Source of the DNA: Candidatus Binatia bacterium
Lineage (GTDB): Bacteria; Desulfobacterota; Binatia; HRBIN30; BPIQ01
Assembly (NCBI GenBank): GCA_026004195.1
Contig: BPIQ01000001.1
Location: 461,871 to 525,870 of the forward strand
Reading direction: 5' to 3'
Length of the DNA: 64,000 nucleotides
In this document: positions 33,247 through 63,444 of the stretch, in pieces
Layout of the letters: each line of letters opens with the position of its first letter
Position numbering within the stretch: position 1 is the stretch's first letter
Notes under the pieces: model-generated
Database searches by the model: none
What the model saw: only the letters and a program-made list of their open reading frames with translations
What the model was told of the DNA's origin: nothing
Made by a program: the position numbers and the translations under genes

Positions 33247-34221
33247 CTAGCCCCTTGTCTTTCCCAAGTCAATTTCGTCCTGCCCGACCCCCCACGTCCG
33301 CCGGAAATATTCGTACGTGCGACGCAGGCCCTCCTCGAAGCCGACTTTGGGTCGGTACCCGAGACGCTCGCGCGCCTTCTCGATCGACGCCTCGGTGTGC
33401 CGCACGTCGCCGGGCCGGGGGGCCGTGTGACGGCGAGCGATGGGCCGGCCGGAGAAGCGCTCGAACACGTCCAGGATTTCGAGAAGCGTGTGCCGCTCCC
33501 CGCACGCTACGTTGAACACCTCCCCGGCCACCCCCGGCGCTGCGAGAGCCAGCAGATTCGCCTCCACCACGTTGTCGATGTAGGTGAAGTCCCTCGACTG
33601 CAGTCCGTCTCCGTGCACCTCGGCGGGTTCGCCCCGAAAACAAGCCTGGAGAAAGAGGGGAATCACGGCGGCGTATTTCGATTCCGGGCTCTGGCGCGGC
33701 CCGAAAACGTTGAAATAGCGCAGCGACACCGTTTCGAGCCCGTAAAGGTGCGAGAAGACACGACAGTAGTACTCGCCGGTGAGCTTCGAGACCGCATACG
33801 GTGAAATCGGGGAGGGAAGCTGGTCTTCCCGTTTCGGGAGTTCCGGGCGATCCCCGTAGACGGAAGAAGACGAGGCGTAAACGAGCCGCCGCACGGTTCC
33901 CGAATCGCGCGAGGCGACGAGCAGGTGCAGCGTCCCGCGTACGTTCACGTCGTCCGTGCTCAGCGGGTCGTCCACGGATCGCAGGACGGAGCGGAGCGCC
34001 GCCTGGTGGAGAACGAACTCGACCCCCTCGACGGCCCGGCGCACGGCCGCGAGCTCCCGCAGGTCCCCCTCGACGACCTCGATTTTCCCTTCCCACGGCC
34101 GGAGGAACTCCCTTCGTCCCGTGCTGAAATTGTCGAAAACGCGCACTCTCTCGCCCCGTTCGACGAGAGCTTCGACCAGATGGCTTCCGATGAAGCCCGC
34201 TCCACCCGTCACCAAGTACAT
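33247..34221 (-). CDS. NAD-dependent epimerase/dehydratase (UDP-hexose 4-epimerase-like)
   Basis: [19 protein letters not shown]…, …YAVSKLTGE… (YxxxK). Confidence 0.85.
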   Translation of the reverse strand: MYLVTGGAGFIGSHLVEALVERGERVRVFDNFSTGRREFLRPWEGKIEVVEGDLRELAAVRRAVEGVEFVLHQAALRSVLRSVDDPLSTDDVNVRGTLHLLVASRDSGTVRRLVYASSSSVYGDRPELPKREDQLPSPISPYAVSKLTGEYYCRVFSHLYGLETVSLRYFNVFGPRQSPESKYAAVIPLFLQACFRGEPAEVHGDGLQSRDFTYIDNVVEANLLALAAPGVAGEVFNVACGERHTLLEILDVFERFSGRPIARRHTAPRPGDVRHTEASIEKARERLGYRPKVGFEEGLRRTYEYFRRTWGVGQDEIDLGKTRG

Positions 34222-35327
34222 CCCTCACCTCCGAAAGAAGTCGACCTTCGGTCCCGCACGGCCCCTCCCGGCACGTCCGTCGCGAGGCGTGGAGGGACCG
34301 GCTCTTCACCGAGCCAGAGACCGGCGAAGCGGACCGCACCCACCAGGAATCCGACGCCCCAGGCGGTGTGCATGACCGCGAGAGCGAGCGGCAACCACCG
34401 GAAGGACCCGACGGCTCCCGCCCGTCGCCGAATCGAAGCCGTCATTCCGCCGAGAGCCGCGAGATAGGCCGCCCAGCCCCCGAGCCCGAGCCAGCCGAGC
34501 GGAGGCACGCCCCAGGAGAGGGCGGGCGACGCCAGAGCGAGAACCAGCGCGGGAGGAACGAAGTGTCGCCAGCTCATCTGCCGCGGGTGCTTCTGGCACA
34601 CCCGGACCTTCCAGAATCCGTACTCGTAGAACTGGCGTGCCAGAGAGCGGAGGTCCCGGCGATTCTGGTAGGAGGAGCGCATCGTCGGTACCAGAAAGAT
34701 CCGACCGCCGGCCTTCCGCAGGCGGTAGTTGAATTCGTCGTCCTGGTTCCGAACGAGCTCCTCGTCGAAAAGTCCGACCTCCTCGAAAACCCGGCGTGGC
34801 CACATTCCCAGGTAGACGGTATCGACCTCGCGTTCCTCCGTGCCGTAGTGAAAGTAGGCTCCCGCCCCGAAGGGCGAGTTCAACGCGGCTGCAATCGCGT
34901 CGCCGACCGGCCCGCCTCCACGGGCCACCATGGGCCCTCCCACGTTGGCCGCACCGGTTCGGCGAAGAGCGAGAACCCCCTGCCGCAGGTAGTCGGGAGC
35001 GAACGTGGTGTGGGCGTCGATTCGTGCCACCACGTCCCCCCGGGCCTCGCGGATCGCGAGGTTCAACCCGGTGGGTACGATTCGTTTCGGGTTCTCGAGA
35101 AGCCGGACCCGGGCGTCTCGCCGGGACCACTCGTCCACGATGGCACGGGTCCGGTCTTCGGAAGCACCGTCCACCACCAGGACTTCCATCCTGTCGGGCG
35201 GGTAATCCTGCGCGAGAATCGACTCGAGACAGGAACCGATGTACGCTTCCTCGTTCCGGCAAGGCAGGACGACGCTCACGAAGGGCCAGCTCGCGCCCCG
35301 GGGTGTCTCGGTCGGTCGCGCGGTCAT
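34209..35327 (-). CDS. Family-2 glycosyltransferase with C-terminal membrane helices
   Basis: ATG 35327 (MTARPTE…SVVLPCRNEE…) overlaps the upstream GT4 stop (ATGA). GT-A DxD region (…VVDGASED…) and two or three C-terminal TM helices. Confidence 0.8.
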   Translation of the reverse strand: MTARPTETPRGASWPFVSVVLPCRNEEAYIGSCLESILAQDYPPDRMEVLVVDGASEDRTRAIVDEWSRRDARVRLLENPKRIVPTGLNLAIREARGDVVARIDAHTTFAPDYLRQGVLALRRTGAANVGGPMVARGGGPVGDAIAAALNSPFGAGAYFHYGTEEREVDTVYLGMWPRRVFEEVGLFDEELVRNQDDEFNYRLRKAGGRIFLVPTMRSSYQNRRDLRSLARQFYEYGFWKVRVCQKHPRQMSWRHFVPPALVLALASPALSWGVPPLGWLGLGGWAAYLAALGGMTASIRRRAGAVGSFRWLPLALAVMHTAWGVGFLVGAVRFAGLWLGEEPVPPRLATDVPGGAVRDRRSTSFGGEGCTW

Positions 35328-36382
35328 CTCCCCAGGCTCTCGTAGAGAGCTCGCATGCTCTCGAGCATCCGTTCTTTCGAAAAGCGCGCGGCCCGCTCCC
35401 GCGCCCGCGAAGAGAACGCCCGCCAGCACGCGGCGTCCGAAAGCAGTGCCGAGCTGTAGTCGACGAACCCGGAAACGTCGCCGGGAGCCACGAGAAACCC
35501 TTCCCGACCCGAGCGGAAAAGCTCTCGGGTTCCTCCCACGTCCGTCGCGATCGGAGGCACTCCGCTGGCCATGGCTTCGAGGACCACGTTCGGAAGCCCT
35601 TCCCACTCCGAGGTCAGCCAGAAGAGCGACGCCCTGGCAAGAACACCGGGCACGTCTTTCGTGATTCCCGGGAGCGACACCCGACGGCCGAGGCCCAGCT
35701 CCCCGACTTTCTTCTCGAGGGACCGCCGGAGAGGGCCTTCTCCGAAGAACACGAAGGACGCGTCGGGCGCTCGCCCCGAAAGGCGCGCTGCCGCGTCGAC
35801 GAAAAGATCGGGGTTTTTCTGCCGGACGAGTCTTCCCATACCCACGACGAGACCCTCACGCCCGTCTCCCGCCCGCGCGCCGAACTCCCCGAGGTCCACA
35901 CCGTTGTACACGACCACCACGCGCTCCCGCGGGGCACCATAAGCCCGGCTGACGTAGTCGGCAACCAGTCGCGAATTCGCCACGATCGCGCGGCTCCGGC
36001 GGAAGGCGAGACGGTTGAGCACGTCCACGGCTCCCCCCTGGCGCTTGCAGTTGCGCGCCGAGGTGACGAGCGGGATCTCCTTGCGACCCGCGACGGCGAG
36101 AAAGGCGTAAGCGTTGCCGAGATAGAGCCAGGAGTGGACGACGCGAACACCGTCTCCGACAAGGGCGGCCCGCAATCTTGCCACGCGCTCCGGGGGAGAA
36201 CCGCCGAACGCTCTCAGGGGAACCCCCGCAGCGCGGATTTCGTCCCCGAAAGGGTCGGTCTTCTCGCTCGTGGAATACACGATGGGCTCCCACCCCCAGC
36301 TCCTGAGAGCGCGCGCGACCAGCGAGAGCTGCCTTTCGGCCCCTCCGGCCGTGAGCTGACCGATGACGAGGCCGATCCTCAT
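35324..36382 (-). CDS. GT4-family glycosyltransferase
   Basis: MRIGLVIGQLTAGGAERQL… Rossmann N-domain; C-terminal …EGLPNVVLEAMASGVPPIATDVGGTREL… ATG 36382 overlaps the upstream stop (ATGA). The first ~450 codons of tracked ORF 35324..37723 are shadow. Confidence 0.85.
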   Translation of the reverse strand: MRIGLVIGQLTAGGAERQLSLVARALRSWGWEPIVYSTSEKTDPFGDEIRAAGVPLRAFGGSPPERVARLRAALVGDGVRVVHSWLYLGNAYAFLAVAGRKEIPLVTSARNCKRQGGAVDVLNRLAFRRSRAIVANSRLVADYVSRAYGAPRERVVVVYNGVDLGEFGARAGDGREGLVVGMGRLVRQKNPDLFVDAAARLSGRAPDASFVFFGEGPLRRSLEKKVGELGLGRRVSLPGITKDVPGVLARASLFWLTSEWEGLPNVVLEAMASGVPPIATDVGGTRELFRSGREGFLVAPGDVSGFVDYSSALLSDAACWRAFSSRARERAARFSKERMLESMRALYESLGR

Positions 36383-37794
36383 GGGTGAAGGGAGGGAGGC
36401 TCTCGGTCTCCCGCTTCCGAGCCGCCGAGTGGATTTTCCTCGAGACCGAATTCGCTCAAGATCAGACGGTGGATCGCTTCCAGCGCCCAGCCCTCGATTT
36501 CCCGGCCACCGAGAGTCGACGTACACGGCCGGTAGACCCACGAGCCGAACCAGTCGTGGTTCGCGCCGTCCGGTCCGCGGTCGTTTTCCCGGATCCGGAA
36601 AGTTCCGTGTCCTACGCTTCCGATCACGCGCCACCCGAGATCCCCGAAGTACGCGAGAAGATCGGGCGCAGGACCGCGCACGGTGCGGTAGAGCTCCTCC
36701 GGTGTATGGACGGAAGTTTCGAGGCGCCCACCTTCGGCGGTCTCCAATTCCCGTAGCGCCGCGGCAACCTCGCTCCGCACCCTTTCGTACTCGGTCCGAG
36801 CCACGTACCCGCACGGTTCCCGGCCCCGAACGTTGAGGTAGACGCGGCCGCAGTAACCACCGTCGGCCCACGCCACCGTCCGGCGCCAGTCGACGAGTTC
36901 CGGGCGAAATTCCGTCGCTCCCCTCGGGGTTTCCCGCAGCCGGAGAAGACCCCGAGCCGCGAGCCAATCGTTGAGGCACACCCCGCCCTCCATTCGACGT
37001 GCCCCGTGGTCGGAAAGGACCAACACGCTCGTGTCCGGTCCGACCACCTCCAGGAGCTTCGCCATCTCTTCGTCCAGAAAGCGGTAGTAGTCGCGGAGAA
37101 CCCACCGGAACGACCCCTCCGGATCGAACCGATCCGAACCGGGGTCGCAAAACGCCCAGAAGGCATGCTGCAAGCGATCGACCGCGATCTCGACGAACAC
37201 GCAGAGGTCCCAGCGCCGGGTCGCGCAGAGGTACCGCACCAGGTCGAAATCCTTTCTCGTCTTCTCGTAGACCTCGCGCAGGATCCTGGGATATTCGGCC
37301 GAACGGAATCCCTCGACGTCGAAGCGGTAACTCCCGAATCGACCCGAAACTTCTTCCGCCAGAGAAGCCGGGAACGTCCACCGTGGCCCCCCCGGCGGCG
37401 TGAGAAAGCAACTGACGACCTCGCCCCGAATCTCCGGTGCCGGGTAGGTCTGGGGGACCCCTACGAGAAGGCTCCGGAATCCCCGGCGACCGAGTCGGTC
37501 CCAGACGCGCGGAAACGGAACGCTGCGCGAGGAAGCCAGATCGTAAGTACCGTACGAGTACGACGTACGCGTCCGGAAGCCGTAGCATCCGAGCTCCCCG
37601 GGGTCCCGTCCCGTGAAAACGCAACTCCACGCCGGAACCGTGATGGGCGGGTGGCAGCTCTCGAGACGCCCCCAGACGCCCTGGGCAGCGAGCGAGGAGA
37701 AGGTCGGAAGCTCCTCTCGCCACTCTCGGAAAAGCTTCTCCGGAGAGAGGGCGTCGAGCCCCACGACCAGAAGCTTGTGTCGTTCTCTTCGCAT
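36379..37794 (-). CDS. Alkaline-phosphatase-superfamily protein (type I phosphodiesterase / nucleotide pyrophosphatase-like)
   Basis: …LLVVGLDALSPEKL…, …VLVLSDHG…; paralogous to 61798..63444. Confidence 0.68.
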   Translation of the reverse strand: MRRERHKLLVVGLDALSPEKLFREWREELPTFSSLAAQGVWGRLESCHPPITVPAWSCVFTGRDPGELGCYGFRTRTSYSYGTYDLASSRSVPFPRVWDRLGRRGFRSLLVGVPQTYPAPEIRGEVVSCFLTPPGGPRWTFPASLAEEVSGRFGSYRFDVEGFRSAEYPRILREVYEKTRKDFDLVRYLCATRRWDLCVFVEIAVDRLQHAFWAFCDPGSDRFDPEGSFRWVLRDYYRFLDEEMAKLLEVVGPDTSVLVLSDHGARRMEGGVCLNDWLAARGLLRLRETPRGATEFRPELVDWRRTVAWADGGYCGRVYLNVRGREPCGYVARTEYERVRSEVAAALRELETAEGGRLETSVHTPEELYRTVRGPAPDLLAYFGDLGWRVIGSVGHGTFRIRENDRGPDGANHDWFGSWVYRPCTSTLGGREIEGWALEAIHRLILSEFGLEENPLGGSEAGDREPPSLHP

Positions 37795-37867: not shown

Positions 37868-39157
37868 TCACGTGTGGCGGAGTCTGCAGGGGTCGGAGAC
37901 AGGCAGTTTACAGAACCACGTCCAGAACTCCTTCATGTATCGGTCCGGTCTGCGGGCCAGTCGTACCCGGAACGCCAGGACGAGGTTCTCCCATTTCGCC
38001 TCTTCGGAGACCCCGAGGAACACGAGCTTGTCCTGCATTCGAAGCCGCAGGTTCCAGTCCGACGGAGCCCCCCGCCGGACGAGCTCTCCCCGGCCGGTGA
38101 AATCCACGGTCCAGTCCCCCCCCTGTGGCCCCGTGACCTCCCACCAGGTCACGATGCCTACCCTACGGGCCGCCTCCGGATCCGCCGCCACGACGCGCTG
38201 GAAGTAGTCACGGAAGCGGTCGAAGAGGTCCGGCGGCGCCGTGGGCTCCGAGGCGAAATACTCGGCGATCCGGGCTGCGTTTCGCGCGCTCAGTTCCTCG
38301 ATTTCCTCCATGCGACGCTCCCAGTCGGGCGGCGGAGCGGCCCGCTCCAGTCCCCCCTCGGGCGTCCAGACGTCGCCGGGGTTCATCTGTAACCCCTCGA
38401 TGTCGGGAGCCTCGGTCGCCAGAGCTGCAATCGCCTCCGCTGGTGTGTTCACGTACTGCGGTGTGTTGAGAAAAAGCTGGTCCGGAGCGAGTAGAGCGTA
38501 ATTTCCGGCGGCCGGCACGGCTCTTTTCGCCCGCAAGAGGCGAGCCCAGTGGACGAATTCCTCCAGATGGGCGTGCTTGGAGGCTCGATACCGTTCCAGC
38601 TTCGACGCCAGGGGGAAGTCGAAACATCCCGGATACTGGCTCGCCCCCGTGAACGTCAGGAAGGCGATGTCGATGTCGTATTCCTCCCCCAGCCGTTTCA
38701 GGGTCGCGTCGTCGAGGTGACAGTCGTTCACGTTGAGCAGGGTACGGCCGTCGCTCTGCACGAGGATGGCGCTGTCGTCCCAGGGCCGGTCGGGGGGGAC
38801 GAGTCGCACGGAAAGACCGGGTGCGAGAGACACCGTCTTCCCGAACGGGAGTTCCCGGATATCCGAGAAACCCAGGTGGCGAATCCGCTCCCGAAATCCC
38901 TTTTGCCGAAAATCGGCGATCACGACGGTGGCATCCTTGTCGAGTTCACCGAGCGTGGCGGGATCGAAGTGATCCGGATGCTCGTGGGAAATGTAGAGAA
39001 AGTCGATCCTCGGTAGATCCCGTGCCGTGAGCCGCAGCGGCGGGTAATGCCACCACGTCCCGTGGTACGTGGGGTCCTTGAGCCACGGATCCATCAGGAT
39101 CCGCTTTCCTTGTGCTTCCACGAGCCAGCAGGCGTGGCCCAGATACGTGACCTTCAT
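37868..39157 (-). CDS. MBL-fold metallo-hydrolase with C-terminal extension
   Basis: Start MKVTYLGHACWLVE (ATG 39157, ATGA overlap with the upstream stop); metal motif FLYISHEHPDHFD (HxHxDH). Confidence 0.75.
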   Translation of the reverse strand: MKVTYLGHACWLVEAQGKRILMDPWLKDPTYHGTWWHYPPLRLTARDLPRIDFLYISHEHPDHFDPATLGELDKDATVVIADFRQKGFRERIRHLGFSDIRELPFGKTVSLAPGLSVRLVPPDRPWDDSAILVQSDGRTLLNVNDCHLDDATLKRLGEEYDIDIAFLTFTGASQYPGCFDFPLASKLERYRASKHAHLEEFVHWARLLRAKRAVPAAGNYALLAPDQLFLNTPQYVNTPAEAIAALATEAPDIEGLQMNPGDVWTPEGGLERAAPPPDWERRMEEIEELSARNAARIAEYFASEPTAPPDLFDRFRDYFQRVVAADPEAARRVGIVTWWEVTGPQGGDWTVDFTGRGELVRRGAPSDWNLRLRMQDKLVFLGVSEEAKWENLVLAFRVRLARRPDRYMKEFWTWFCKLPVSDPCRLRHT

Positions 39158-40344
39158 GACTCGCTCCTTTGCTCCAGCCGAGCGACCAGGGCGGCCACCT
39201 CGAGCTTCCTGGACACGGCCTTGGCTTCCCACAGTGTCTCGTAGAGGCGCTCGACCCGCTCCACCATTCTTTCGAGGGAGAACCCGCGCTCCATCGCATG
39301 CCGGGCGGCTCGACCCAGGCGCGAAGCGAGGTCCGGATTCTCGAGCACGCGCAGGATCGCGGCGGCGAGCGGGGGGACCTCCCTGGGCGGCACGAGCAGC
39401 CCCGAGACTCCTTCCTCGATGAGCTCCGGGGCGCCGCCGACGTTCGTAGCCACGACGGGCTTCCCCGCGGCCATGGCCTCCATGATGGCATTAGACATCC
39501 CCTCGTCGTGGGAAGACAACACGAAAATGTCGAAGGCCGCCAGAACCTCGGGCATGTCGGTCCGCGTCCCCAGAAGAAAAAGCCGGCGCTCGAGGTCGAG
39601 CTCGCGAACGAGAGCCCAGGGGACCTTTTCTTTCGTGTCCTGACCGACCACGACCACCTGGACCTCCGGACGCGAGCGGGCCACCTCGGCAGCGGCTCGA
39701 AGAAATTCTTCGTACCCTTTCCTCACCCTCGCTCTCGTGACCGTCCCGACGACGGGCCGTTCGGGATCCAGACCCAGCCGAGCCTTGAACGGGCGCGCGT
39801 CCTCGACGGGGGCGAAGCGCCGCGTGTCGACGCCGTTTTCGATGACGACGATTTTTTCGAGCGGGCAATTCTCGTCCGCCGAGACGAAGTCGCGCACGGC
39901 CCGGGCGTTCGCCACCACGACGTCGGCGAGGTAGTTCGCCACGCGACAACCCACCGCTTCCGCACCGCGCCGGTAGTGGCAACCTCGCTTGCCGCAGAGA
40001 AGCACCGGCACCCGGGCCAGGCGCGCCGCGAGCGAGCCCACGAATTCCCCGCGGGGCAGGAACGTGTGCACGATATCCACCCGCTCGCGGCGGAAGAGTC
40101 GCGCGAGCCGCACGACCGCGAGAGCCGTCGCCGGCGAGAGAAGCGAGCCCGAAAGCCCGCACTCGAAAACCGGAACGCCCAGTGATTCGACCCGCCCGAT
40201 GAGCTCCCCCCTCCGCCAGAGACAGTGGAGCGAAGGGCGGAACCGCGTCCGGTCCAGCCGCTCGAAAAGCTGTACGAGGTGGTTTTCCGTGCCGCCGCCG
40301 AGGCGGAAGTCGCGGATCACGTAGGCGACGCGAAGGGGACGCAT
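39154..40344 (-). CDS. GT4-family glycosyltransferase
   Basis: …GGTENHLVQL…, …EGMSNAIMEAMAAGKPVVATNVGGAPELI…. Confidence 0.85.
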   Translation of the reverse strand: MRPLRVAYVIRDFRLGGGTENHLVQLFERLDRTRFRPSLHCLWRRGELIGRVESLGVPVFECGLSGSLLSPATALAVVRLARLFRRERVDIVHTFLPRGEFVGSLAARLARVPVLLCGKRGCHYRRGAEAVGCRVANYLADVVVANARAVRDFVSADENCPLEKIVVIENGVDTRRFAPVEDARPFKARLGLDPERPVVGTVTRARVRKGYEEFLRAAAEVARSRPEVQVVVVGQDTKEKVPWALVRELDLERRLFLLGTRTDMPEVLAAFDIFVLSSHDEGMSNAIMEAMAAGKPVVATNVGGAPELIEEGVSGLLVPPREVPPLAAAILRVLENPDLASRLGRAARHAMERGFSLERMVERVERLYETLWEAKAVSRKLEVAALVARLEQRSES

Positions 40345-42997: not shown

Positions 42998-43174
42998 TCA
43001 GAACAACGTGTAGATGAACGGTCCCAACGCCGAGCTCTGGGCCGTCACCATGATGCCGCCGAAGACCAGCAGAACGAGCACCATGGGGATCATCCACCAG
43101 AGCTTGCGCCGCCAGAGAAAGACGAGCAGCTCCCCGGCGATTCCCGCGCGCGCACGAGCCTTCTCGAAAGCCAT
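42998..43174 (-). CDS. DUF5989/SxtK-like small membrane protein (58 aa)
   Basis: Not in the ORF track (too short). ATG at 43172-43174 with GAGGTGA RBS; product MAFEKARARAGIAGELLVFLWRRKLWWMIPMVLVLLVFGGIMVTAQSSALGPFIYTLF, a pattern I recall as a family commonly found next to carbamoyltransferases. Confidence 0.55.
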   Translation of the reverse strand: MAFEKARARAGIAGELLVFLWRRKLWWMIPMVLVLLVFGGIMVTAQSSALGPFIYTLF

Positions 43175-43180
43175 CTTCGC

Positions 43181-55132: not shown

Positions 55133-56026
55133 TCATACGGTCCCTCCTTCCTCCGCGAAGGCGAGCAGCCCGACCGCCTTGCGCCAAAAGGCGCTCGGCC
55201 CTCGCGACTCGCTCCCCCGTCGCGCCACCGCCCTGGCCAAGCGGCGAAAAGAGGAGCGGCGGAGAAGCAAAGAAACGGCCGGATGGAACACGACCGCTTG
55301 GCGGATCGGCCGTGGCCGGAACCCCATGGAAAACTTGAACTCGTCGAGCGGCCCGACGGGCTCGAGCGACTCGATTCCGAACGTGACTTCGCGGAGCCCC
55401 CTTTCGTGGAGCATCTCGTGCAGGGTCCGGTAAACCAGGGCGTTGTTCGGGTAAGCACCCAGGGCGTCCGTGCGAGAGCGCGCCACGGAGAACTCGGCCG
55501 AATCTTCGAACACGAGACAAACGAGGAACGCGGCGAGCTCGTTCCCTACCCACGCGCCTCGGACCTCCACGTCGGGCGTTCTCGCCACGGCATCCCAGAA
55601 GAGGTCCCACCGAACCCGGCCCCAGTCTCCCTGCCGGCCTTGCCGCACGACGGTATCCCGGTGAGCCTCGTAGCCGTGACGGCGCGCTTCTTCCGCCGAG
55701 AGCGGGGCGATCTCGCACCGTCGCAAGCCTCGTCGGACCTTGCTCCGCGTGTTGGCGCTCAGCTTCTCGAGCGAGTAGTCCCTGTCGTCGCACACGATCT
55801 GGTAGCTCGCTCTCCCCTTCGCGTGCAGAGGGGCCGTGTAGCGGGCCCCGGCAAAGCCGCCCCGCACGAGCAACTTCCGCAGCTCTTCGGGAGGCGGTTC
55901 GCGGAGCTCGTGGGAAGGCGCGCCGAGCAGGAAATAGCGCGCGGCATCGTACCAGAGCCCCGACTCGGTGCGGACGACACGATGCCCGATGGCGGAAAGA
56001 AAGGATGCGTACTGCTCGCTCTTCAC
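55133..56026 (-). CDS. FemAB-related / GNAT-fold acyltransferase
   Basis: C-terminal ~297 aa of the 742-aa tracked ORF (VKSEQYASFLSAIGHRVVRTESGLWYDAARYFLLGAP…). GTG 56026 overlaps the upstream stop (GTGA); the remaining N-terminal part is antisense shadow. Confidence 0.55.
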   Translation of the reverse strand: MKSEQYASFLSAIGHRVVRTESGLWYDAARYFLLGAPSHELREPPPEELRKLLVRGGFAGARYTAPLHAKGRASYQIVCDDRDYSLEKLSANTRSKVRRGLRRCEIAPLSAEEARRHGYEAHRDTVVRQGRQGDWGRVRWDLFWDAVARTPDVEVRGAWVGNELAAFLVCLVFEDSAEFSVARSRTDALGAYPNNALVYRTLHEMLHERGLREVTFGIESLEPVGPLDEFKFSMGFRPRPIRQAVVFHPAVSLLLRRSSFRRLARAVARRGSESRGPSAFWRKAVGLLAFAEEGGTV

Positions 56027-57447
56027 CGCCGCGCTCCGCCTTCTTCGCACACCGAACGCTGGAGGACGACCGAAAGCCCGATGAACCAGTGGAAGATGAT
56101 CACGCGCCAGAGGTCGCCGACCAGGGAGAAAGCGAGAAAGACCACGAAGCCCGTACGCAGCGTTCGCACGGTCCAGAGAAAGAGCCACGCATCTCGAACG
56201 GCCCTGGCTTCGACGGCTCGCTCCGCTTCGTTGTAATTTCGCAACGTTCTCGCGAACAGCACGAGGTAGAGCACGAGCGACAGGATCCCTCCTTCGGCCA
56301 GCGCGGCCAGGTAGGAACTGTGCGGGGGGGCCACGTACCGGGCCGGGTCGCGCAGGTACCGGACGACTTCCCAGTTGCCGACCCCGACACCGATCAAGGG
56401 GTTCCGCTCGGCGAGGTCCAGCGCCACCTGGAGACCGTAACCCCGACGCTCGATGGACCCTCCTCCCAGGGGGTCCGCTTCCCGGCCGGTACCGGGCAGC
56501 ACGGAAAGTCTCTCGAGACTGCGCTCCGGAACCAGGTTCGCGACGAGCGGGAACGCCAGAACGACGACGGTCGCTCCCGCCAGGAGCTTTTTGACCGAGA
56601 CACCACCTTCGAAAAACAGGAGAAGTCCCGCGAGCGCGAGACCCGCCACGCCACTGCGGGACGCCGTCATGAAGACGGCCAGAACCAAGAGCGGCGTGAG
56701 GACCAGAGCCGAAACTCCGGTCGGAAAACCCGGCCTCGACTGCCACAGGTAACGCAGCGCCAGGATCGCGATGATGCAGAACAAGGCGAGTCGATTGGGG
56801 TTCCCTGCGGCGGCTACGAAAAGACCCCAGTTGGCGCGATACCCGGCGAATCCTTCGCCCCCGAGGACCCGCACGATCCCCGCGAGACCGCTCGCCACGA
56901 AAAGAACGATCGCGAGGACGAAAGCCGCGTACGCGTAACGCCGGTCGCGGACGAAGGCGACGAAAAGAACGAAAAAGGCGAACCGCCCGAACAGGATGTC
57001 GGCGGGGTCCTGCCCCCGTCGCTCGAGCTCCCCGACGAGCGAACGCGTGAGCTCGTCGAAGGGATTGAGGAACCGGGAGAAGAGCCCGATCCCCGTGATG
57101 GCACCCAGAAGAAGCACCTCGGGCCTTTTCAGGTACGACCAGTCGCCGGTCCGGGCCGACCGGTAGAAAAGAACGAGGGCCAGGAGCCCGCCGAGGGCGT
57201 TGTTGAGGCTCACGGGGCCCGCGTTCACGAGCCACGGCGGGTAGGTGTAGAGAAAGGACGAGAGAAGAAAGAGAACACCCAGCTCGGGACGCGAGAGAAC
57301 GAGAGCGAGGCCGGCGAGCCCGACGACGAGAACCGCCGAAAGCTCGATCCCCAACGTCCACTGGAGCCCGGCGACCACGAGGCCCAGGCCGACCGCCAGG
57401 AGGGGGAGCGTCGTCTCCTCACGAGGGCGCGTGGCCACGGTCGCCAT
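56023..57447 (-). CDS. O-antigen ligase-like (Wzy_C) polytopic membrane protein
   Basis: 474 aa, ~10-12 TM helices with a large periplasmic loop (…LAERNPLIGVGVGNWEVV…); resembles exosortase-locus O-antigen-ligase-like proteins. Confidence 0.75.
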   Translation of the reverse strand: MATVATRPREETTLPLLAVGLGLVVAGLQWTLGIELSAVLVVGLAGLALVLSRPELGVLFLLSSFLYTYPPWLVNAGPVSLNNALGGLLALVLFYRSARTGDWSYLKRPEVLLLGAITGIGLFSRFLNPFDELTRSLVGELERRGQDPADILFGRFAFFVLFVAFVRDRRYAYAAFVLAIVLFVASGLAGIVRVLGGEGFAGYRANWGLFVAAAGNPNRLALFCIIAILALRYLWQSRPGFPTGVSALVLTPLLVLAVFMTASRSGVAGLALAGLLLFFEGGVSVKKLLAGATVVVLAFPLVANLVPERSLERLSVLPGTGREADPLGGGSIERRGYGLQVALDLAERNPLIGVGVGNWEVVRYLRDPARYVAPPHSSYLAALAEGGILSLVLYLVLFARTLRNYNEAERAVEARAVRDAWLFLWTVRTLRTGFVVFLAFSLVGDLWRVIIFHWFIGLSVVLQRSVCEEGGARR

Positions 57448-57456: not shown

Positions 57457-58185
57457 TCAGAGCAGGACTTCGAGGAAGGCGGGAATGTACGTCCGCTTGC
57501 GGTTCAACACGGCTCCGAGAAGCCTCGCCCCCACTCTTTCCAGCTGGCGCTTGGCCGCGTCGGCTTCCGCGACCGGTGTCCGGTCGGCCTCCACGACCAG
57601 AATGACGCCGTCCGCCTTGGGCGCCAGGAGGGAAGTGTCCGCGTAGAGGTTCACCGGAGCGCCGTCGATCACGACGAAATCGAACCGCCCCCGCAACTTC
57701 CCCACCAGATCCCCGAGCACTTCCAGGTCGTCCGGCCGCGGAGCCGCCTCCAGGCTCCCACCCACGGGCAGGACGGAGAATCCCAGTCCCTCGACTCGCA
57801 CGGTGGCCCTTTCCTCGTCCCCGTCGCCGGCGAGCAAACGGGCGAAGCCACAGTCCGGCGGCAGCGCCAGCGTGCGATGCAGGGCGGGAGTCCGAAGGTT
57901 GGCCTCGACGAGCAGCACGCGCGAGTCCTTCTCTTTTCCCAGGGCCCGCGCGAGTCCGAGCGAAACGGTGGTCGCGCCCTCTCCGTGGCCCGGGCTCGTC
58001 ACGAGGATGGTCCGCACGCCCGTGAGTCCCGCCGCCGTCAGCAGATTCGCCCGCAGCTTCCGGTATTCTTCCTCGACCGCGGGAAGTTTCGGCGGCGACG
58101 CCGGCGAGATCCGAGGGAGCGCGGGGGATCGGCTCTGTTCCCGCTCCTGCTCGGCCTTTTTCAGCGCCTCGTAAATCTTGCTCAC
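57457..58185 (-). CDS. BY-kinase-type P-loop ATPase (exosortase-locus EpsG-like tyrosine autokinase)
   Basis: Characteristic N-terminus MSKIYEALKKAEQER; Walker A-like VTSPGHGEGATTVSLGLA; Walker B …FDFVVIDGAPV…. Confidence 0.75.
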   Translation of the reverse strand: MSKIYEALKKAEQEREQSRSPALPRISPASPPKLPAVEEEYRKLRANLLTAAGLTGVRTILVTSPGHGEGATTVSLGLARALGKEKDSRVLLVEANLRTPALHRTLALPPDCGFARLLAGDGDEERATVRVEGLGFSVLPVGGSLEAAPRPDDLEVLGDLVGKLRGRFDFVVIDGAPVNLYADTSLLAPKADGVILVVEADRTPVAEADAAKRQLERVGARLLGAVLNRKRTYIPAFLEVLL

Positions 58186-58199
58186 GGAGTCCGCCTTTC

Positions 58200-59762
58200 T
58201 CAGGCCTCGCCCACCTCGGGGAGCGAACCGAGCGCGGGGAGCCCGAGAAACCGTTCCACGTCGCGTTCGCTACGGATCGTCCGCCCGAAGTACTCCACGC
58301 CGAACGTCCCCGCAGCCGCCACCACCAGCCCCGAAAGCAGCGCCACCAGCGTCGATGCCTGCCGCCGTCCGGTCCTCGGAAGCGGCAGCGCGGGCCGCTG
58401 CACGACCTCGACGTTCACCATCTTTTCCTGGTCCATCGCCTCGGAAACCCGGGCCTCTTCCTCCCGCTTGATGTAAAGTTCGTACGTGTTCCGCCAGTTC
58501 CTGACCTCCTGCAGCAGGCGGTCGTACTCGAGGCTCTTCGCTTTCAGGCGAACGAGCTGTCGGTTCAGCCGGCTCAACTGCTCTTCCAGGGATGCCCGCC
58601 GAGCCCTCGCCTCCTGAAGTTTTCCTTGAAGTTCGAGGAGCTCCCGCACCCGGTCGTCCCGGACGGGATTGCGCCGCAAAATCTGCCGGCCGGGTACCGT
58701 GGGCTTTTTCGCGAGTTCCTGCTCGAGCTCGTTTCCGAGGTCGCGAATTTCCGCCGTCGCGTCGCGCACGTGTCGTTCCTTCTCCGTGTACTTCCGCAAG
58801 AGAGCGATACGGTCGGCCTTCCGAACGGCCAGCTGCTCGGTCAACGCCTCGACGACCGGGTTGACCTCCACGTACTCGTACCACTTGACATCCGGCGGTT
58901 CCGAGGCCACCTGCCGCTCGGTCGTGCGGAGCCGTTCCTCGAGACCGCTGATGGCCGCGCGGACCTCGCGGAGCTCTTGCTCGGTTTTCGAAATGGAAAG
59001 GACGGCGGCCTGGATCTCCGCCTCCGGGTCGACGATGCCCTCGCGGACGGAAAACTCGCGCAGGGCCCTTTCGGCTCGAGCCAGGCTGTCTTGCAGGCTG
59101 CGCCGCTGCTCTTCGTAGAAGCGGGCGAGGCCTTTCGCACCGTGGACGAGCGCGTGGTAGGCCAGATACTCGTCGACGACGCGATTGACGACCAGCGCCG
59201 CCTGCCTCGCCTTGGGGTGATAGTAGTCGATCTGGATGACGTTCGAGTTGCGGATCGGCGTCACCTGCAGGCTGTCGGCGAGCCGCAGCACCTGCCGGCC
59301 GAGCACCCCGCGGCTTTTGTCCTGGTCTCCGCCGTTTTCCGTGCGCGCGCGAACCCGACGTACGGCACCGTTCCCGTTGAGCTTCTCGACGACCCGCTCG
59401 AGCAGTTCCCGGCTCCGGATGATGTGGACCTCGGAGTTGACGACCGATTCGTTCAGGTTGATCGTCGTAAGCCGGGTCAAATCCGTCGGCTGGATGGTGA
59501 TATCCGCCCGCTGCGTGGTGATGAGAACCTTCGCCGTCGCCACGTAGAGCGGTTCCCGCAACAGCACGAGCACGAGGCCGGGAAGCGACACCAGGAGAAA
59601 GAGCGTCAAGAAAAGCCGCCAGCGTTTGAACAGGACGTGCAGGACGTCGCGGATCTGCTCCTGGAGGGCGTAGCCGTTTCCGTTTCCGTTTCCGTTTCCG
59701 TTGGGCCGAAAGCGAGAACCGTTCGCCGGTCGCCCGTTCGTCGCGTTTCCGTTGCCTGCCAT
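58200..59762 (-). CDS. Polysaccharide chain-length determinant protein (Wzz/GumC/EpsF-like)
   Basis: N-terminal (GN)n tract, TM helix (LFLTLFLLVSLPGLVLVLL), long coiled-coil periplasmic domain, C-terminal TM (STLVALLSGLVVAAAGTFGV). Confidence 0.8.
   Translation of the reverse strand: MAGNGNATNGRPANGSRFRPNGNGNGNGNGYALQEQIRDVLHVLFKRWRLFLTLFLLVSLPGLVLVLLREPLYVATAKVLITTQRADITIQPTDLTRLTTINLNESVVNSEVHIIRSRELLERVVEKLNGNGAVRRVRARTENGGDQDKSRGVLGRQVLRLADSLQVTPIRNSNVIQIDYYHPKARQAALVVNRVVDEYLAYHALVHGAKGLARFYEEQRRSLQDSLARAERALREFSVREGIVDPEAEIQAAVLSISKTEQELREVRAAISGLEERLRTTERQVASEPPDVKWYEYVEVNPVVEALTEQLAVRKADRIALLRKYTEKERHVRDATAEIRDLGNELEQELAKKPTVPGRQILRRNPVRDDRVRELLELQGKLQEARARRASLEEQLSRLNRQLVRLKAKSLEYDRLLQEVRNWRNTYELYIKREEEARVSEAMDQEKMVNVEVVQRPALPLPRTGRRQASTLVALLSGLVVAAAGTFGVEYFGRTIRSERDVERFLGLPALGSLPEVGEA
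59664..59692. repeat. Tandem hexanucleotide repeat (CCGTTT)x4.8 inside the wzz-like gene, encoding an N-terminal (Asn-Gly)n tract
   Basis: CCGTTTCCGTTTCCGTTTCCGTTTCCGTT on the plus strand, which reads (AACGGA)n as NGNGNGNGNG on the minus strand. Confidence 0.8.
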
Positions 59763-59810
59763 CGTTCGTTCGAGTCGGGAACCCGGTGTCCCCCCGCAAA
59801 TTCGGAGGCT

Positions 59811-60515: not shown

Positions 60516-60580
60516 GGTGTTCACGGCCGGCACGCCTTGTCCGACAACGCCGCCGTCCGTGTCGACTCGCTGTCGGCCGA

Positions 60581-61801
60581 TTATCCATATGACCCCCAAA
60601 GCGCCTTTTTTTGCAACAGGTTTTTGCAGTCCTGCAACGGCGTATGCACCCCCCGGCGAAAACTCGTCACTCGGTCGTAGACGGCCTCGAAACCGGTCAG
60701 AACTTCGGACCGCAGTTGTCCGAGGGGAACCGCTTCCTCTCGGGCCGGACCTCCCGAGTCGAGCGCCACGAGAATCGCCCGGGCCAGACCCGCCGAGTCT
60801 CCGTCAAAGGAAAAAACCCGAGTGCCCGCTTTCCGCCCGACCAGGCGAGCGACGGCCCGGCTCGTCACTACGGGAAGGCCCGTCGCGAGGTAGTTCCAGA
60901 TCTTGATGGGGAAGCCGGACCACGAAGTTCGCGGACACACGAGAACGTCGGCGGCGCAGAGAGCGGACCAGACTCCTTCGAAGTTCTCCGCCACCCGAAT
61001 TTCCACGTTGGGCCTCCCGGCCACGAGCGTATCCGTCCCGAGACTCGGCGAGCCGGCATGCGTGACGATCCAGAGTTTCGTCTCGGGCCTGACACGAGCG
61101 ACGGCGTCCATGGCTCGTAGGAGAGCCGGAATGTCCTGGTACGGGTCCAGATTCCCGGCATAGACGACCAGCGGCCCCTCCGGTTCGCGGAGCTTCGGAA
61201 AGTCCCTCGCGTGGCGTCGCGGCACGGCTACGGCGGGCGGTAGAATCACGAGTTTCTCCTCGGGAACGCCGCACCGGCGCAAGAACCGCGCCATGGGTTC
61301 GGACAGGGCAACGACAGCGTCGGCGGCGGCGGGGACCCGACGGTCGAGATACCGGGCCAGCAGTCGGGCACATTTCCGTCCCGGGGCCGTGCGAAAGTAA
61401 CGGGCGAGTTCGTCGCTCATCACGTTGTGACCGTGGTAAACGACCGGGATGCCCGTCCACCGTCGTACGAGGTAGGCCAGAATCGGCGCCTCGTAGTTGT
61501 GAGCGTGGATCACGTCGATCGAGAAGACCCTGACGACGCGGAACAGTGTCGGGAGGAGGAGGAGCGTGTAGGCGACCCTCCGGAGGGAAGGCCCGTAACA
61601 TTCGGGGCGCCCGAGAAACGAGGGTGCGCGGTGGACCCACACGCGCTCGGGAGGAGTCCAGGGCTGCCCCGCGGCGTAGCACACGACGTGCACCTCGTGA
61701 CCGCGCTCCGCCAGGCCTTCGGCCAGGTCACGAACGAGGACCTGCGAGCCCCGCGGCGACGGAAACGGGGCCGCGACGACCATGGCGATCCGGTACGTCA
61801 T
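60581..61801 (-). CDS. GT4-family glycosyltransferase
   Basis: Start MTYRIAMVVAAPFPSPRGSQV (ATG 61801, ATGA overlap with the upstream stop). The 47 upstream codons of the tracked ORF are rejected. Confidence 0.85.
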   Translation of the reverse strand: MTYRIAMVVAAPFPSPRGSQVLVRDLAEGLAERGHEVHVVCYAAGQPWTPPERVWVHRAPSFLGRPECYGPSLRRVAYTLLLLPTLFRVVRVFSIDVIHAHNYEAPILAYLVRRWTGIPVVYHGHNVMSDELARYFRTAPGRKCARLLARYLDRRVPAAADAVVALSEPMARFLRRCGVPEEKLVILPPAVAVPRRHARDFPKLREPEGPLVVYAGNLDPYQDIPALLRAMDAVARVRPETKLWIVTHAGSPSLGTDTLVAGRPNVEIRVAENFEGVWSALCAADVLVCPRTSWSGFPIKIWNYLATGLPVVTSRAVARLVGRKAGTRVFSFDGDSAGLARAILVALDSGGPAREEAVPLGQLRSEVLTGFEAVYDRVTSFRRGVHTPLQDCKNLLQKKALWGSYG

Positions 61802-63444
61802 CCGAAGTAGCCGAGGGCGCGCAGCCGCGACTCGATCTCCCGCTCTTCCTCCGAAGAATACGGAGCTTCGACGCCACCCGAGTCGGGAACCGACACCGAC
61901 ACCGCCGCCTCGCCTTCGACGAGCGAAGTTCCCTCCATCCATTCCGGGGGACGAAGTCCGCAGAGGGAAAGGATGGTCGGAGCCACGTCCAGAATGGACA
62001 CGCCGCTCCTCCGTCCCGGGGCGAGGCCGGGTGCCGCAAGGGCGAACACCCCGTCCGGCCTGTGGCTACCCCCGAGTCCGAGTGCCTTTCCACCTTCGAG
62101 TTCCGGCGGAGCCAGCTCCCGGAGGCATTCCCCCGGCCGTCCGGCGCTGCGGAGGCAAAGGTAACTGTAGCCAGCCGGCTCCTCGAGTTCGAGCACGATA
62201 TCGGGGGCCCGCTCGACGGCGGGGCCCGCGTAGAGTTCCTCCCGGCGCCACGCCCGCCGGATCACGGGACGCCCCGTGGCCGGATCGGACCAGTCGTGCA
62301 AATCTTCGATCAGTTCGTCCCGCACTTTCTCGTACTCCGCCGGGTCCACCCGGCCCGAGGCGTCCCGCCCCCGAACGTTGAGCCAGATCGAGGGAAAATA
62401 ATTGAGCTCCTCGGAAAACGCTCGCGTCCGGGTCCAGTCGATTCCCGCGAACCGAGCCCGGGCTTCGAGCTCCCCGGCCAGCCTTCCACCGCCCAGCCGC
62501 ACCAGATGGGCCTGCCACCCCGCCGGTACGACGCGGGCGGCCAGAGACCTCGCCCGTCCGAAAACGTCCGCGAAGCTTTTCCCCGTAAAGGCGAGCCAGC
62601 CTCTCCGCGCGAGCCACCGGTTCAGGTAAATCCCCCGCGTTCCGCTCCCTCCGAACCCGTGGTCGGAAGCCACGAGCACCGCGCGCGGTGCCGCGACCTC
62701 GAGCAGTGTCCCGAGGGCCCTGTCGACGGCCTGGTAGACTCGCTCGATGGCCGTCCCGAGGTGTTCGGGAGTACCCGGTCGGTAGCGCGGAGAATCGGGG
62801 TCGAAAAACTGCCAGAAATGGTGGGCCACGGTGTCCGACTCACCGAGCACCAGCACGAAGCAATCCCACGACTCTTCTCGCAGAAGCCGTTCGGCGAGTC
62901 TCGTCTTCGTCTCGATGCCGCCGAGAAGGCGCGCGAGAGCTCGCTCGTACCACCCCCGGCCCACATGGAACTCCTGGAAATCGGCGTAAGGAAACCCTCC
63001 GGAAGCCAGGACGTCGTCGGCCCACTCCGGAGGGTAGACGAACGATCGTCCCGCCCGGGTCGTGACGGGGGAATCGAATCCCGAAATCATGCGCCCGTTC
63101 ACGGGCTCCGGGGGGTACGTTCCCGGCATTCCCAGAACGGCGACCCGACGGCCTGCGAGGCTCAACATGCTCCAGATCGTCGGACACCGGCGGTAGCTAC
63201 CGTTGACGAAGCGAATTCCGTACTCGGGGGTGCGTGCCGTGAAGTCGAAAATCCCGTGGCGACCGGGATTCACGCCGGTCATCAAGGTCGTCCAGTTGGG
63301 CATCGTGGCCGGCGGAAGGACCGAACGCAGCTCGCCCCAAGCCGATACCCGCAAGAGCCGGCCGAAATTCGGAAGCCGACCCTCCTCGACCCACGGTTCG
63401 AGGAGCCGGAGCGTGCCGCCGTCGAGGCCGAGAACGAAGAGCAT
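61798..63444 (-). CDS. Alkaline-phosphatase-superfamily protein (type I phosphodiesterase / nucleotide pyrophosphatase-like)
   Basis: MLFVLGLDGGTLRLLEPW…, …VLVASDHGFG…; paralog of 36379..37794. Confidence 0.7.
   Translation of the reverse strand: MLFVLGLDGGTLRLLEPWVEEGRLPNFGRLLRVSAWGELRSVLPPATMPNWTTLMTGVNPGRHGIFDFTARTPEYGIRFVNGSYRRCPTIWSMLSLAGRRVAVLGMPGTYPPEPVNGRMISGFDSPVTTRAGRSFVYPPEWADDVLASGGFPYADFQEFHVGRGWYERALARLLGGIETKTRLAERLLREESWDCFVLVLGESDTVAHHFWQFFDPDSPRYRPGTPEHLGTAIERVYQAVDRALGTLLEVAAPRAVLVASDHGFGGSGTRGIYLNRWLARRGWLAFTGKSFADVFGRARSLAARVVPAGWQAHLVRLGGGRLAGELEARARFAGIDWTRTRAFSEELNYFPSIWLNVRGRDASGRVDPAEYEKVRDELIEDLHDWSDPATGRPVIRRAWRREELYAGPAVERAPDIVLELEEPAGYSYLCLRSAGRPGECLRELAPPELEGGKALGLGGSHRPDGVFALAAPGLAPGRRSGVSILDVAPTILSLCGLRPPEWMEGTSLVEGEAAVSVSVPDSGGVEAPYSSEEEREIESRLRALGYFG

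Follow-up and report, generated by a model that had tools for sequence, protein, structure and literature searches.

Can a polysaccharide locus be assigned to an exosortase system on account of its accessory genes when no exosortase gene is found among them? This question is raised by a gene array in a 64-kb stretch of DNA (the window) from the metagenome-assembled genome (MAG) Candidatus Binatia bacterium KatS3mg076. Binatia are an uncultured lineage that is widespread in soil and sediment. An initial annotation had described positions 33247-63444 as an exosortase-type polysaccharide locus with decorating enzymes. Its domain content supports a locus for polysaccharide biosynthesis and export that includes such enzymes, but the designation 'exosortase-type' could not be upheld, with neither exosortase nor PEP-CTERM proteins nearby and all XrtA models below their cutoffs. 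The roughly 36-kb chromosomal locus, of which the annotated region is the main part, is read here, with reasonable confidence, as the source of a decorated heteropolysaccharide, probably acidic and amino-sugar-containing, that is made and exported by a Wzy-type pathway.

Because the G+C content of the window (64-71%) makes raw lists of open reading frames (ORFs) noisy, the gene map was built with a codon-usage model trained on obvious genes. Domains were assigned to all 26 genes by Pfam and NCBIfam scans (Table 1). The gene call returned positions 33247-63444 as an unbroken array of 26 genes, all on the minus strand, and thereby confirmed the continuity that had been annotated. Most junctions are 4-base overlaps or leave less than 25 nt between the genes, while five have gaps of 44-96 nt. 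A stretch of about 440 nt between called genes (43175-43610) is part of a disrupted ALGX/SGNH gene. Of the two ends of the annotated locus, the lower one holds, as the last gene ends at 33247. The upper one does not, since a sulfatase-fold gene (G01, 63454->64000) opens before position 64000 and an ATPase and sigma-54 regulators continue upstream. Below 33247, sucD, ndk, rlmN and further housekeeping genes keep the minus-strand orientation as far as about 21 kb, and co-orientation alone is therefore no evidence for a single unit. It is the tight packing together with the synteny in relatives that argues for one.

The export and polymerisation module

The core of the locus consists of an outer-membrane polysaccharide export (OPX) lipoprotein (G04), a type 2 polysaccharide co-polymerase (PCP-2, G05), a protein with the fold of bacterial tyrosine kinases (BY kinases, BYKs; G06) and a polytopic Wzy_C protein (G07). 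They had been annotated as Wza-like, Wzz-like, BY-kinase-like and ligase-like proteins, and their domains were confirmed with Pfam and NCBIfam. Residues 26-208 of G04 align with residues 6-185 of 9n9a, an export protein of 186 aa and the best match in the PDB, while PslD and Wza gave weaker matches. The start of G04 may lie at 60533, according to the gene call in a companion assembly. Class-3 OPX proteins contain only the domains D1 (Poly_export) and D2 (SLBB), have no outer-membrane helix and require a beta-barrel porin (PMC12819527). Judged by its domains, G04 has this architecture.

G05 shows the topology of PCP-2 proteins, with transmembrane (TM) helices at residues 50-68 and 471-489, followed by a cytoplasmic tail of about 31 aa. 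It reached 105.2 bits on TIGR03007 (cutoff 278.85) and 103 bits on TIGR03017, which is likewise below the cutoff. The neighbouring G06 is clearly related to CapB (E 6e-20) and retains the Walker B Asp. However, its Walker A motif reads GEGATT in contrast to GAGKST in CapB, with Ala in place of Lys, its Walker A' motif reads VEAN in contrast to VDGD, and its last 25 residues contain a single Tyr. G06 thus has none of the canonical BY-kinase marks, with neither the Lys of Walker A nor the DxD of Walker A' nor a Tyr cluster. The first two and the Tyr tail are lost in four of four orthologs (window and the related loci L004, L007 and L009), and the orthologs in L004, L007 and L009 end with a conserved YIPxFLExxL motif. 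The BY pseudokinases EcpK and HfsB are known to scaffold kinase-less PCP-2 proteins in the pairs EcpK-EpsV and HfsB-HfsA (PMC12004946). By its motif losses, G06 matches a tyrosine pseudokinase of this class and would be paired with the kinase-less G05.

The module most closely resembles the Class-3 OPX systems of the EcpK/EpsV type. Both contain a short OPX lipoprotein with Poly_export and SLBB domains, a kinase-less PCP-2 with a short tail and a stand-alone BYK-fold protein lacking the kinase motifs, and both pathways include a phosphoglycosyl transferase (PGT) and a Wzy_C protein. There are differences as well. EcpK has no BYK motifs at all and its gene is not adjacent to epsV (PMC12004946), whereas G06 keeps a recognisable BYK sequence with the Walker B Asp and its gene adjoins the PCP gene. 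Moreover, the Binatia locus has no Wzp-type porin and no Wzx, but adds an ExeA-like ATPase, a TM-anchored sulfatase-fold protein, paralogs of the alkaline phosphatase (AP) superfamily and a PEPCK/HprK-fold protein.

The triad is not that of an ordinary Wza/Wzc system either. With the group 1 capsule and colanic acid loci of E. coli it shares an OPX protein, a PCP-2 and a kinase-fold protein coupled to Wzy-dependent polymerisation. G04, however, is much shorter than the Wza model (234 aa compared to about 380 aa), has a single SLBB domain, lacks the C-terminal outer-membrane helix and scored only 49.8 of 333 bits on NF011658. The scores of G05 and G06 on the Wzc model NF008568 were 24 and 37 bits, respectively, against a cutoff of 1068. 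In contrast to Wzc, the kinase module is a separate protein that is probably catalytically degenerate. An ordinary group 1 Wza/Wzc capsule was thus rejected on model scores and architecture, and the triad is instead described as Class-3 OPX, kinase-less PCP-2 and BY pseudokinase.

G07 contains at least ten hydrophobic segments. Its sole NCBIfam match was TIGR03097, a 'putative O-glycosylation ligase' model, with 45.2 bits compared to a cutoff of 188.1. Of the components of a Wzx/Wzy pathway, a priming PGT (G10) and the PCP and OPX pair (G05, G04) are present.

Priming, sugar and decorating enzymes

The priming PGT (52441-53844) had been overlooked in the initial annotation, as had a beta-helix protein, a DUF5989 mini-protein and the disrupted ALGX/SGNH gene. 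G10 scored 329.8 bits on TIGR03025, which is above the cutoff of 295.55 and was matched in two stretches. Its PglC-like core (residues 4-196) is followed by four TM helices (215-327) and a PF13727 domain (265-441). The AlphaFold2 (AF2) model of G10 had a pLDDT of 82.7. In a Foldseek search it matched PglC with target TM-scores (TMt) of 0.75-0.79 at 33% identity, and 3nkl, a PglF/WbpM-like fragment, matched the C-terminal domain with a TMt of 0.76. Large PGTs of the WbaP type carry their accessory domains, which are common to PglF-like dehydratases, N-terminal to the catalytic core (PMC10312794). G10 shares the 4-TM bundle and PF13727 with WbaP and these dehydratases, but its accessory module comes after the core and not before it, so that the domain order is reversed compared to the canonical large monotopic PGT. 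The reversed architecture was found in more than 120 sequence clusters with 61-71% identity and near-full coverage. These clusters come from Binatia, Vicinamibacterales, Kryptonia and other groups.

G10 lies among genes that recall the Pgl module of Campylobacter and Neisseria (PglF, PglE, PglD, PglC). PglC is the nearest relative of its core (TMt ~0.77), and a DegT aminotransferase, a GNAT acyltransferase and a dehydratase of the short-chain dehydrogenase/reductase (SDR) family adjoin it. The Pgl genes for bacillosamine encode an acyltransferase, an aminotransferase, a PGT and a dehydratase, and this order is paralleled by G08-G09-G10-G11. PglD, however, is a hexapeptide-repeat acetyltransferase, whereas G08 is a GNAT of the PF13480 type. 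By analogy, the neighbours G08, G09 and G11 suggest 4-amino-4,6-dideoxy-N-acetylhexosamine (4-amino-4,6-dideoxy-HexNAc) as primer. G08 had been called a FemAB-related acyltransferase. The PF13480 assignment stands with 23.7 bits, but TIGR03019, the XrtA-associated FemAB model, was not matched. There was no other NCBIfam match either, and a profile of the family found nothing among the PDB sequences. Within this family (842 representatives in an exhaustive HMMER search), TIGR03019 was touched by only one of 66 sampled members at an E-value of 0.0011, and G08 was rejected as XrtA FemAB.

The remaining sugar enzymes were confirmed by Pfam or NCBIfam as annotated, namely four GT4 and one GT2 glycosyltransferases, three SDR epimerases/dehydratases, the DegT aminotransferase and the Gfo/Idh/MocA oxidoreductase. 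One gene for UDP-glucose 6-dehydrogenase (ugd) and one for a UXS/ArnA-like SDR lie on the same strand 4-6 kb downstream of the locus (26751-29026). Both could provide the polymer with uronic-acid or pentose precursors, and together with G26 they suggest that it contains uronic acids.

The decorating enzymes were likewise confirmed, comprising the methyltransferase, the carbamoyltransferase, the metallo-beta-lactamase-fold hydrolase and the two AP-family proteins. G02 and G23 are paralogs with 31% identity (BLASTP, E 5e-40). A carbamoylated and methylated product, as initially proposed, is supported by the Carbam_trans_N and Carbam_trans_C domains of G17 (276 and 234 bits) and the methyltransferase G14.

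G15 had been annotated as an HprK-related kinase. The PEPCK/HprK fold was retained, but an assignment as HprK-related kinase A was rejected, as the protein reached 38.1 instead of 200 bits on TIGR04352. Its family has about 214 'hypothetical' members, mostly from Binatia, with an invariant GxSGVGKST motif. The AF2 model (pLDDT 93.4) matched ATP-dependent PEPCK (E 1.7e-7) and HprK/P (E 1e-4, TMt 0.53) in Foldseek. On the basis of the model, G15 is placed in the PEPCK/HprK superfamily at the fold level, as a probably lineage-restricted family.

The ALGX/SGNH gene G18, which adjoins the carbamoyltransferase gene and would be a normal companion of the carbamoyl- and methyltransferases, is intact for about 250 codons. 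A tblastn comparison with its L007 ortholog, which is intact at 401 aa and carries PF16822 (ALGX), shows at least three frame switches between 43200 and 43700. The companion contigs leave 43175-44372 uncovered. G20 is a candidate polysaccharide lyase, epimerase or hydrolase, judging by its beta-helix domains.

Table 1. Genes of the polysaccharide locus in the window with coordinates, strand and supporting matches.
Gene	Assignment	Position	Strand	Evidence
G01	Membrane-anchored sulfatase-fold/AP-superfamily protein (3' part)	63454..64000	-	Pfam Sulfatase 55 bits on window fragment
G02	Cytoplasmic AP-superfamily (Phosphodiest) protein, 548 aa	61798..63444	-	PF01663 150.8 bits; no TM helix; same position in relatives
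G03	GT4 glycosyltransferase	60581..61801	-	Glyco_transf_4 102 bits and Glyco_trans_1_4
G04	Short (Class-3-type) OPX lipoprotein, 234 aa	59811..60515	-	Poly_export 74.6 bits and one SLBB; lipobox FTAC
G05	PCP-2-type co-polymerase without kinase domain	58200..59762	-	Wzz 33.9 bits
G06	Stand-alone BY-kinase-fold protein with degenerate motifs, begins MSKIYEALKKAEQER	57457..58185	-	Aligns with CapB, VpsO, Etk, Wzc
G07	Wzy_C (O-antigen polymerase/ligase family) polytopic membrane protein	56023..57447	-	PF04932 47.4 bits (cutoff 31.7)
G08	PF13480-type GNAT acyltransferase ('FemAB-like')	55133..56026	-	Acetyltransf_6 23.7 bits, cutoff 22 (marginal)
G09	DegT-family sugar aminotransferase	53848..55041	-	PF01041 438.6 bits; ArnB 399 and PseC 368 bits, both below cutoff
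G10	Priming PGT	52441..53844	-	Bac_transf residues 4-196 (202 bits); CoA_binding_3/PF13727 residues 265-441
G11	SDR sugar-nucleotide dehydratase/epimerase	51328..52344	-	Epimerase 152 bits; weak Polysacc_synt_2; orthologs of relatives carry PF02719
G12	Gfo/Idh/MocA oxidoreductase	50261..51331	-	PF01408 93 bits; UDP-GlcNAc 3-dehydrogenase-like 108 bits, below cutoff
G13	SDR (HpnA/thioester-reductase-like) epimerase/reductase	49272..50264	-	Epimerase 94, NAD_binding_4 90, HpnA 138 bits (below cutoff)
G14	Class I SAM methyltransferase	48529..49275	-	Methyltransf_11 62.6 bits
G15	PEPCK/HprK-fold P-loop protein	47398..48522	-	TIGR04352 38.1 bits (cutoff 200); match covers P-loop residues 163-219 only
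G16	GT4 glycosyltransferase	46155..47438	-	Glycos_transf_1 130.7 bits; stp2 155 (cutoff 409)
G17	NodU/CmcH-type carbamoyltransferase	44374..46158	-	Carbam_trans_N 275.8 and Carbam_trans_C 234 bits; relatives 71-81% identical
G18	ALGX/SGNH-type putative O-acyl-handling protein, disrupted	43175..44372	-	Weak GDSL_2; intact ORF 43611-44372, then frameshifted remnants
G19	DUF5989 small membrane protein	42998..43174	-	PF19451 70 bits; same position in L007
G20	Secreted right-handed beta-helix protein, 867 aa	40363..42966	-	Beta_helix 135 bits in 4 stretches; NosD, DUF1565; N-terminal signal-like helix
G21	GT4 glycosyltransferase	39154..40344	-	Glycos_transf_1 127.6 bits; stp2 206 (cutoff 409)
G22	Metallo-beta-lactamase-fold hydrolase	37868..39157	-	Lactamase_B_3 49, Lactamase_B_2 42 bits
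G23	Cytoplasmic AP-superfamily (Phosphodiest) protein	36379..37794	-	PF01663 142.5 bits
G24	GT4 glycosyltransferase	35324..36382	-	Glycos_transf_1 114 bits; stp2 124 (cutoff 409)
G25	GT2 glycosyltransferase with hydrophobic C-terminal region	34209..35327	-	Glycos_transf_2 100.7 bits; at least one C-terminal TM segment
G26	TviC/GalE-like SDR epimerase, at the end of the locus	33247..34221	-	Epimerase 205; TviC 235 and GalE 180 bits, both below cutoff

Synteny, exosortase markers and rival explanations

Two contigs of the public read-set assembly DRR290133 are 99.8-99.9% identical to the window, and one of them (L003) extends 12 kb past the window end. Two proteins of the locus and the upstream ATPase share 100% identity with KatS3mg076_0453, _0458 and _0468 of the Candidatus Binatia MAG. 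The genes upstream of the locus were read from this companion contig with precomputed Pfam calls. The full-length G01 has 593 aa (L003 10820-12601) with about five N-terminal TM helices and 170 bits on the Sulfatase model. Its nucleophile site reads T-R-P-S-I in place of the C/S-x-P-x-R motif of sulfatases, and a true formylglycine sulfatase is therefore unlikely. The next gene upstream encodes an ExeA-like AAA ATPase of 656 aa, which has a single TM helix and contains SPOR towards its C-terminus. It is followed by a sigma-54 response regulator, a 217-aa protein and then divergent two-component and radical-SAM genes. A 561-aa protein (L003 4893-6578) mixes AAA and lid pieces of sigma-54 activators with HisKA-like pieces of histidine kinases. 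It gave no match to TIGR02916 and is conserved, in divergent orientation, upstream of the locus in L004 and L006.

For the synteny analysis, the genes around ATPase and G10 homologs were compared, and species-representative genomes, a collection that left out the source MAG, were scanned with a G08 alignment, which yielded 27 loci. About 16 of these are colinear, as examined over ±10 kb around the G08 ortholog. The MAGs in which they lie bear labels such as Binatia, 'delta proteobacterium' and Thermodesulfobacteriota. The shared order is sulfatase-fold, AP, GT4, OPX, Wzz, kinase-like, Wzy_C, GNAT, DegT and PGT genes, followed by SDR, GFO, SDR, (methyltransferase), (G15-like), GT4, carbamoyltransferase, ALGX and DUF5989 genes, the two in brackets not being constant. 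This conserved order in about 16 MAG loci argues for a selected functional unit that has no exosortase where canonical XrtA loci carry one.

Some relatives differ from the window in details of the module. The orthologs of the GT4 gene G03 and the OPX gene G04, which are separate genes in the window, form a single ORF in seven relatives (L006 at 16079-18217, L012, L013, L014, L015, L017 and L018), and the fusions keep the OPX signal-peptide region between both parts. Such a fusion would anchor the OPX part at the inner membrane, an unusual topology for a protein of 'outer-membrane' export. A second sulfatase-fold gene, not present in the window, lies between the PCP and pseudokinase genes in L006 (20070-21959), L012-L018, L025 and L028.

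The loci for XrtA EPS (exopolysaccharide; Haft 2006; TIGR03007, 03013, 03015, 03018, 03019, 03027, 03088, 03097) have the same family types in a similar order, namely an export protein, a chain-length determinant, a kinase-like protein, an ATPase, an O-ligase-like protein, a GNAT and GT4s, and also have sigma-54 response regulators nearby. They differ in that the kinase-like G06 has no Tyr cluster, the GNAT G08 is of another family and the Binatia ATPase is extended by a TM helix and by a C-terminal half that contains SPOR. In line with the reading proposed initially, the NCBIfam models of the XrtA/PEP-CTERM systems were best or joint-best for G04, G05, G06, G07, the three GT4s G16, G21 and G24 and the upstream ATPase. 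The ATPase came closest with 281.4 bits on TIGR03015, the XrtA/PEP-CTERM system-associated ATPase (cutoff 324.5), with the model fully covered. G04 scored 109.7 bits on TIGR03027 (cutoff 180) and G06 90.5 bits on TIGR03018 (cutoff 230.65), level with EpsG and a generic eps_fam model. The scores were 190 bits for TIGR03013 (cutoff 393) and 124-206 bits for TIGR03088 (stp2, cutoff 409). None of the accessory proteins reached the curated cutoff of an XrtA-associated model. The steady top rank of these models is nevertheless a real signal of kinship.

In canonical XrtA systems, the exosortase is encoded inside the EPS locus. The Pfam and NCBIfam scans of all genes called in the 64-kb window detected no exosortase (EpsH/XrtA, PF09721/TIGR03109), which agrees with the initial annotation. 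The search of the flanking sequence that it had proposed found neither exosortase nor PEP-CTERM proteins in the window and the 12 kb upstream, and the precomputed Pfam calls of the upstream region and of six relatives' loci contained no PF09721. The Binatia-type loci also have no unassigned polytopic ORF, as each polytopic membrane ORF is a homolog of a window gene. PEP-CTERM tails were searched locally with a crude six-frame regular expression (PEP motif, hydrophobic helix and basic tail at ORF ends), with no hit in the window and the contigs and none in 695 kb of window and related loci; the C-terminus of G20 has no such motif either. A literature search retrieved no publication on an exosortase in Binatia.

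A genuine XrtA/PEP-CTERM-coupled EPS locus, whose exosortase and PEP-CTERM substrates would be encoded at another place in the genome and whose polysaccharide would form a matrix or anchor for sorted proteins, is nevertheless conceivable from the top-ranked models for G04-G07, the GT4s and the ATPase. The two upstream sigma-54 response regulators add to this, as they reach 398 and 438 bits with TIGR02915 (PrsR). However, they remain below its cutoff of 502.6, AtoC scores higher for both, and the AtoC and NtrC models match them as well as or better than PrsR, while PrsK and PrsT were not found in the window, the upstream region or the approximately 16 colinear loci. Every marker is under its curated cutoff, neither G08 nor its family corresponds to TIGR03019, and about 76 kb around the locus and the approximately 16 colinear loci (±10 kb) contain no exosortase candidate and no PEP-CTERM tail. 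Furthermore, only EpsH is without homologs in PEP-CTERM-negative genomes, whereas the EPS accessory families have close homologs there (Haft 2006), and the markers are therefore not diagnostic. Altogether, such a coupling is unlikely, and the locus is regarded as distantly related to the EPS loci of the XrtA type, but not as a demonstrated exosortase system. Quite unlikely is also a glycoconjugate locus, in which a short bacillosamine-primed glycan on undecaprenyl diphosphate would be transferred by G07, as a WaaL/PglL-like ligase, onto lipid A-core or proteins. Such a role would fit the primer module similar to PglC, PglE and PglD, the lack of Wzx and porin genes in the locus, the name of the only NCBIfam match of G07 and its single Wzy_C domain, which polymerases, WaaL and PglL have in common. 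On the other hand, the PCP-2, pseudokinase and OPX genes, hallmarks of the export of high-molecular-weight polymers, are kept next to G07 in all colinear loci, and with G07 as ligase no second Wzy-like gene would be left for a polymerase.

The array could also comprise two or more adjacent sugar clusters which merely share their orientation, i.e. export and primer genes (G01-G13), decoration genes (G14-G19) and glycosyltransferase and hydrolase genes (G20-G26). The co-orientation with the housekeeping genes is in agreement with this, and the decoration genes vary, as G14 and G15 are missing in many relatives and some have a Wzx or MBOAT gene. In addition, conservation of G21-G26 was glimpsed in L015 only. 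Gene boundaries abut or overlap across the array, however. About 16 loci share the order from G02 through G17/ALGX, which in L007 and L015 continues with G20 or G21. One pathway would need all parts, with glycosyltransferases in the third module and primer and export in the first. Separate clusters are thus considered very unlikely.

Several points weigh against the preferred reading of a Wzy-type locus. No Wzp-like beta-barrel porin candidate was detected among the genes of the window or the 12 kb upstream, and no window gene matched Polysacc_synt or MurJ, so that a Wzx flippase of the MOP family is lacking in the locus. A Wzx gene is located between the methyltransferase and the G15-like gene in L008 and L009, but is absent from most colinear loci. 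Since the Wzy_C domain is common to polymerases, ligases and O-oligosaccharyltransferases, the role of G07 is apparently not separable by domain. The sugar identities are guesses, because all sugar-nucleotide enzymes score below the equivalog cutoffs. The rank of the XrtA models possibly points to an exosortase encoded elsewhere. Finally, G18 is either a pseudogene, in which case part of the locus may have decayed, or it reflects an indel error of the assembly.

Pathway, surroundings and significance

Based on the domains identified, the lost motifs, the folds, the synteny and the lack of an exosortase nearby, the following substrates, order of reactions and protein partners may be proposed for the Wzy-type pathway. 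G11, G13, G26, G12, G09 and G08 would produce modified UDP-sugars, one of them likely 4-amino-4,6-dideoxy-HexNAc, i.e. a bacillosamine-type primer. The PglC-like G10 would load the first sugar-phosphate onto undecaprenyl phosphate, and the four GT4 and one GT2 enzymes would build the repeat unit. This may be decorated by the carbamoyltransferase G17 and the methyltransferase G14 and possibly by G15 and the AP-superfamily proteins G01, G02 and G23, with G01 probably acting on the periplasmic side. A flippase encoded elsewhere would carry the repeat unit across the membrane and G07 would polymerise it. The kinase-less PCP-2 G05, scaffolded by the putatively catalytically dead G06, may then set chain length and export, before the Class-3 OPX lipoprotein G04 would hand the polymer to an outer-membrane porin encoded outside the locus. 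The ExeA-like SPOR ATPase and the sigma-54 response regulators past the window probably assemble and regulate the machine.

In a more far-reaching reading, the locus would stand for a sister lineage of the XrtA EPS machinery that is spread across Binatia, does without an exosortase and has an envelope architecture of its own. The pseudokinase-driven PCP and the short OPX coupled to a cytoplasmic GT4 (fused in seven relatives) may point to it, but the idea is a doubtful one at present. Phosphate-linked substituents of the carbamoylated, methylated polymer might be added or trimmed by G15 as a dedicated kinase of the PEPCK/HprK fold, together with the periplasm-facing Thr-nucleophile protein G01 and both AP paralogs of the cytoplasm. 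To our knowledge, neither such chemistry nor this trans-envelope arrangement has been described for Wzy-type systems.

The G+C content is uniform along the window, which argues against a recent island. As a tRNA search found no tRNA genes either, there is no sign of a mobile island. A search for sigma-54 -24/-12 motifs gave only intragenic matches inside the locus, and a scan for sigma-70 promoters and terminators returned no more than expected by chance. The sole intergenic near-consensus sigma-54 -24/-12 element found was TGGCACGCTCCGTGCT (L003 3301-3316). It precedes a hybrid histidine kinase/radical-SAM operon and not the EPS genes.

Other genes around the locus deserve a brief mention. 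A sucD-like gene for the alpha subunit of succinyl-CoA ligase (32320-33228) starts 18 nt downstream of G26 without sucC beside it, and ndk and rlmN come next. At 2-3595, a molybdopterin oxidoreductase adjoins a protein with two cytochrome c domains and a haem domain of the ethylbenzene dehydrogenase type (EB_dh), which suggests a periplasmic enzyme of the type II dimethyl sulfoxide (DMSO) reductase family. The protein encoded at 9944-11533 has lipoyl and E3-binding domains followed by hexapeptide (LbH acyltransferase) repeats, which replace the catalytic domain of 2-oxoacid dehydrogenase complexes. The gene for this unusual protein directly follows those for E1 alpha and beta (7982-9930) and one for a PIG-L deacetylase.

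Current models are not overturned by this essentially ordinary polysaccharide locus. All components belong to known superfamilies, and the reversed-order PGT architecture is common (>120 sequence clusters). It is the combination of reversed PGT, PEPCK/HprK-fold protein, three AP-superfamily proteins and ExeA-like ATPase that makes the locus a lineage-specific variant. The XrtA-like accessory proteins without a nearby exosortase are a caution against inferring exosortase systems from accessory markers alone. G05 and G06 would represent a naturally adjacent pair of PCP-2 and pseudokinase, a class that has been recognised only recently. Given the fact that the locus is kept in many Binatia MAGs, its product is probably a major polymer of the envelope or matrix of these bacteria.

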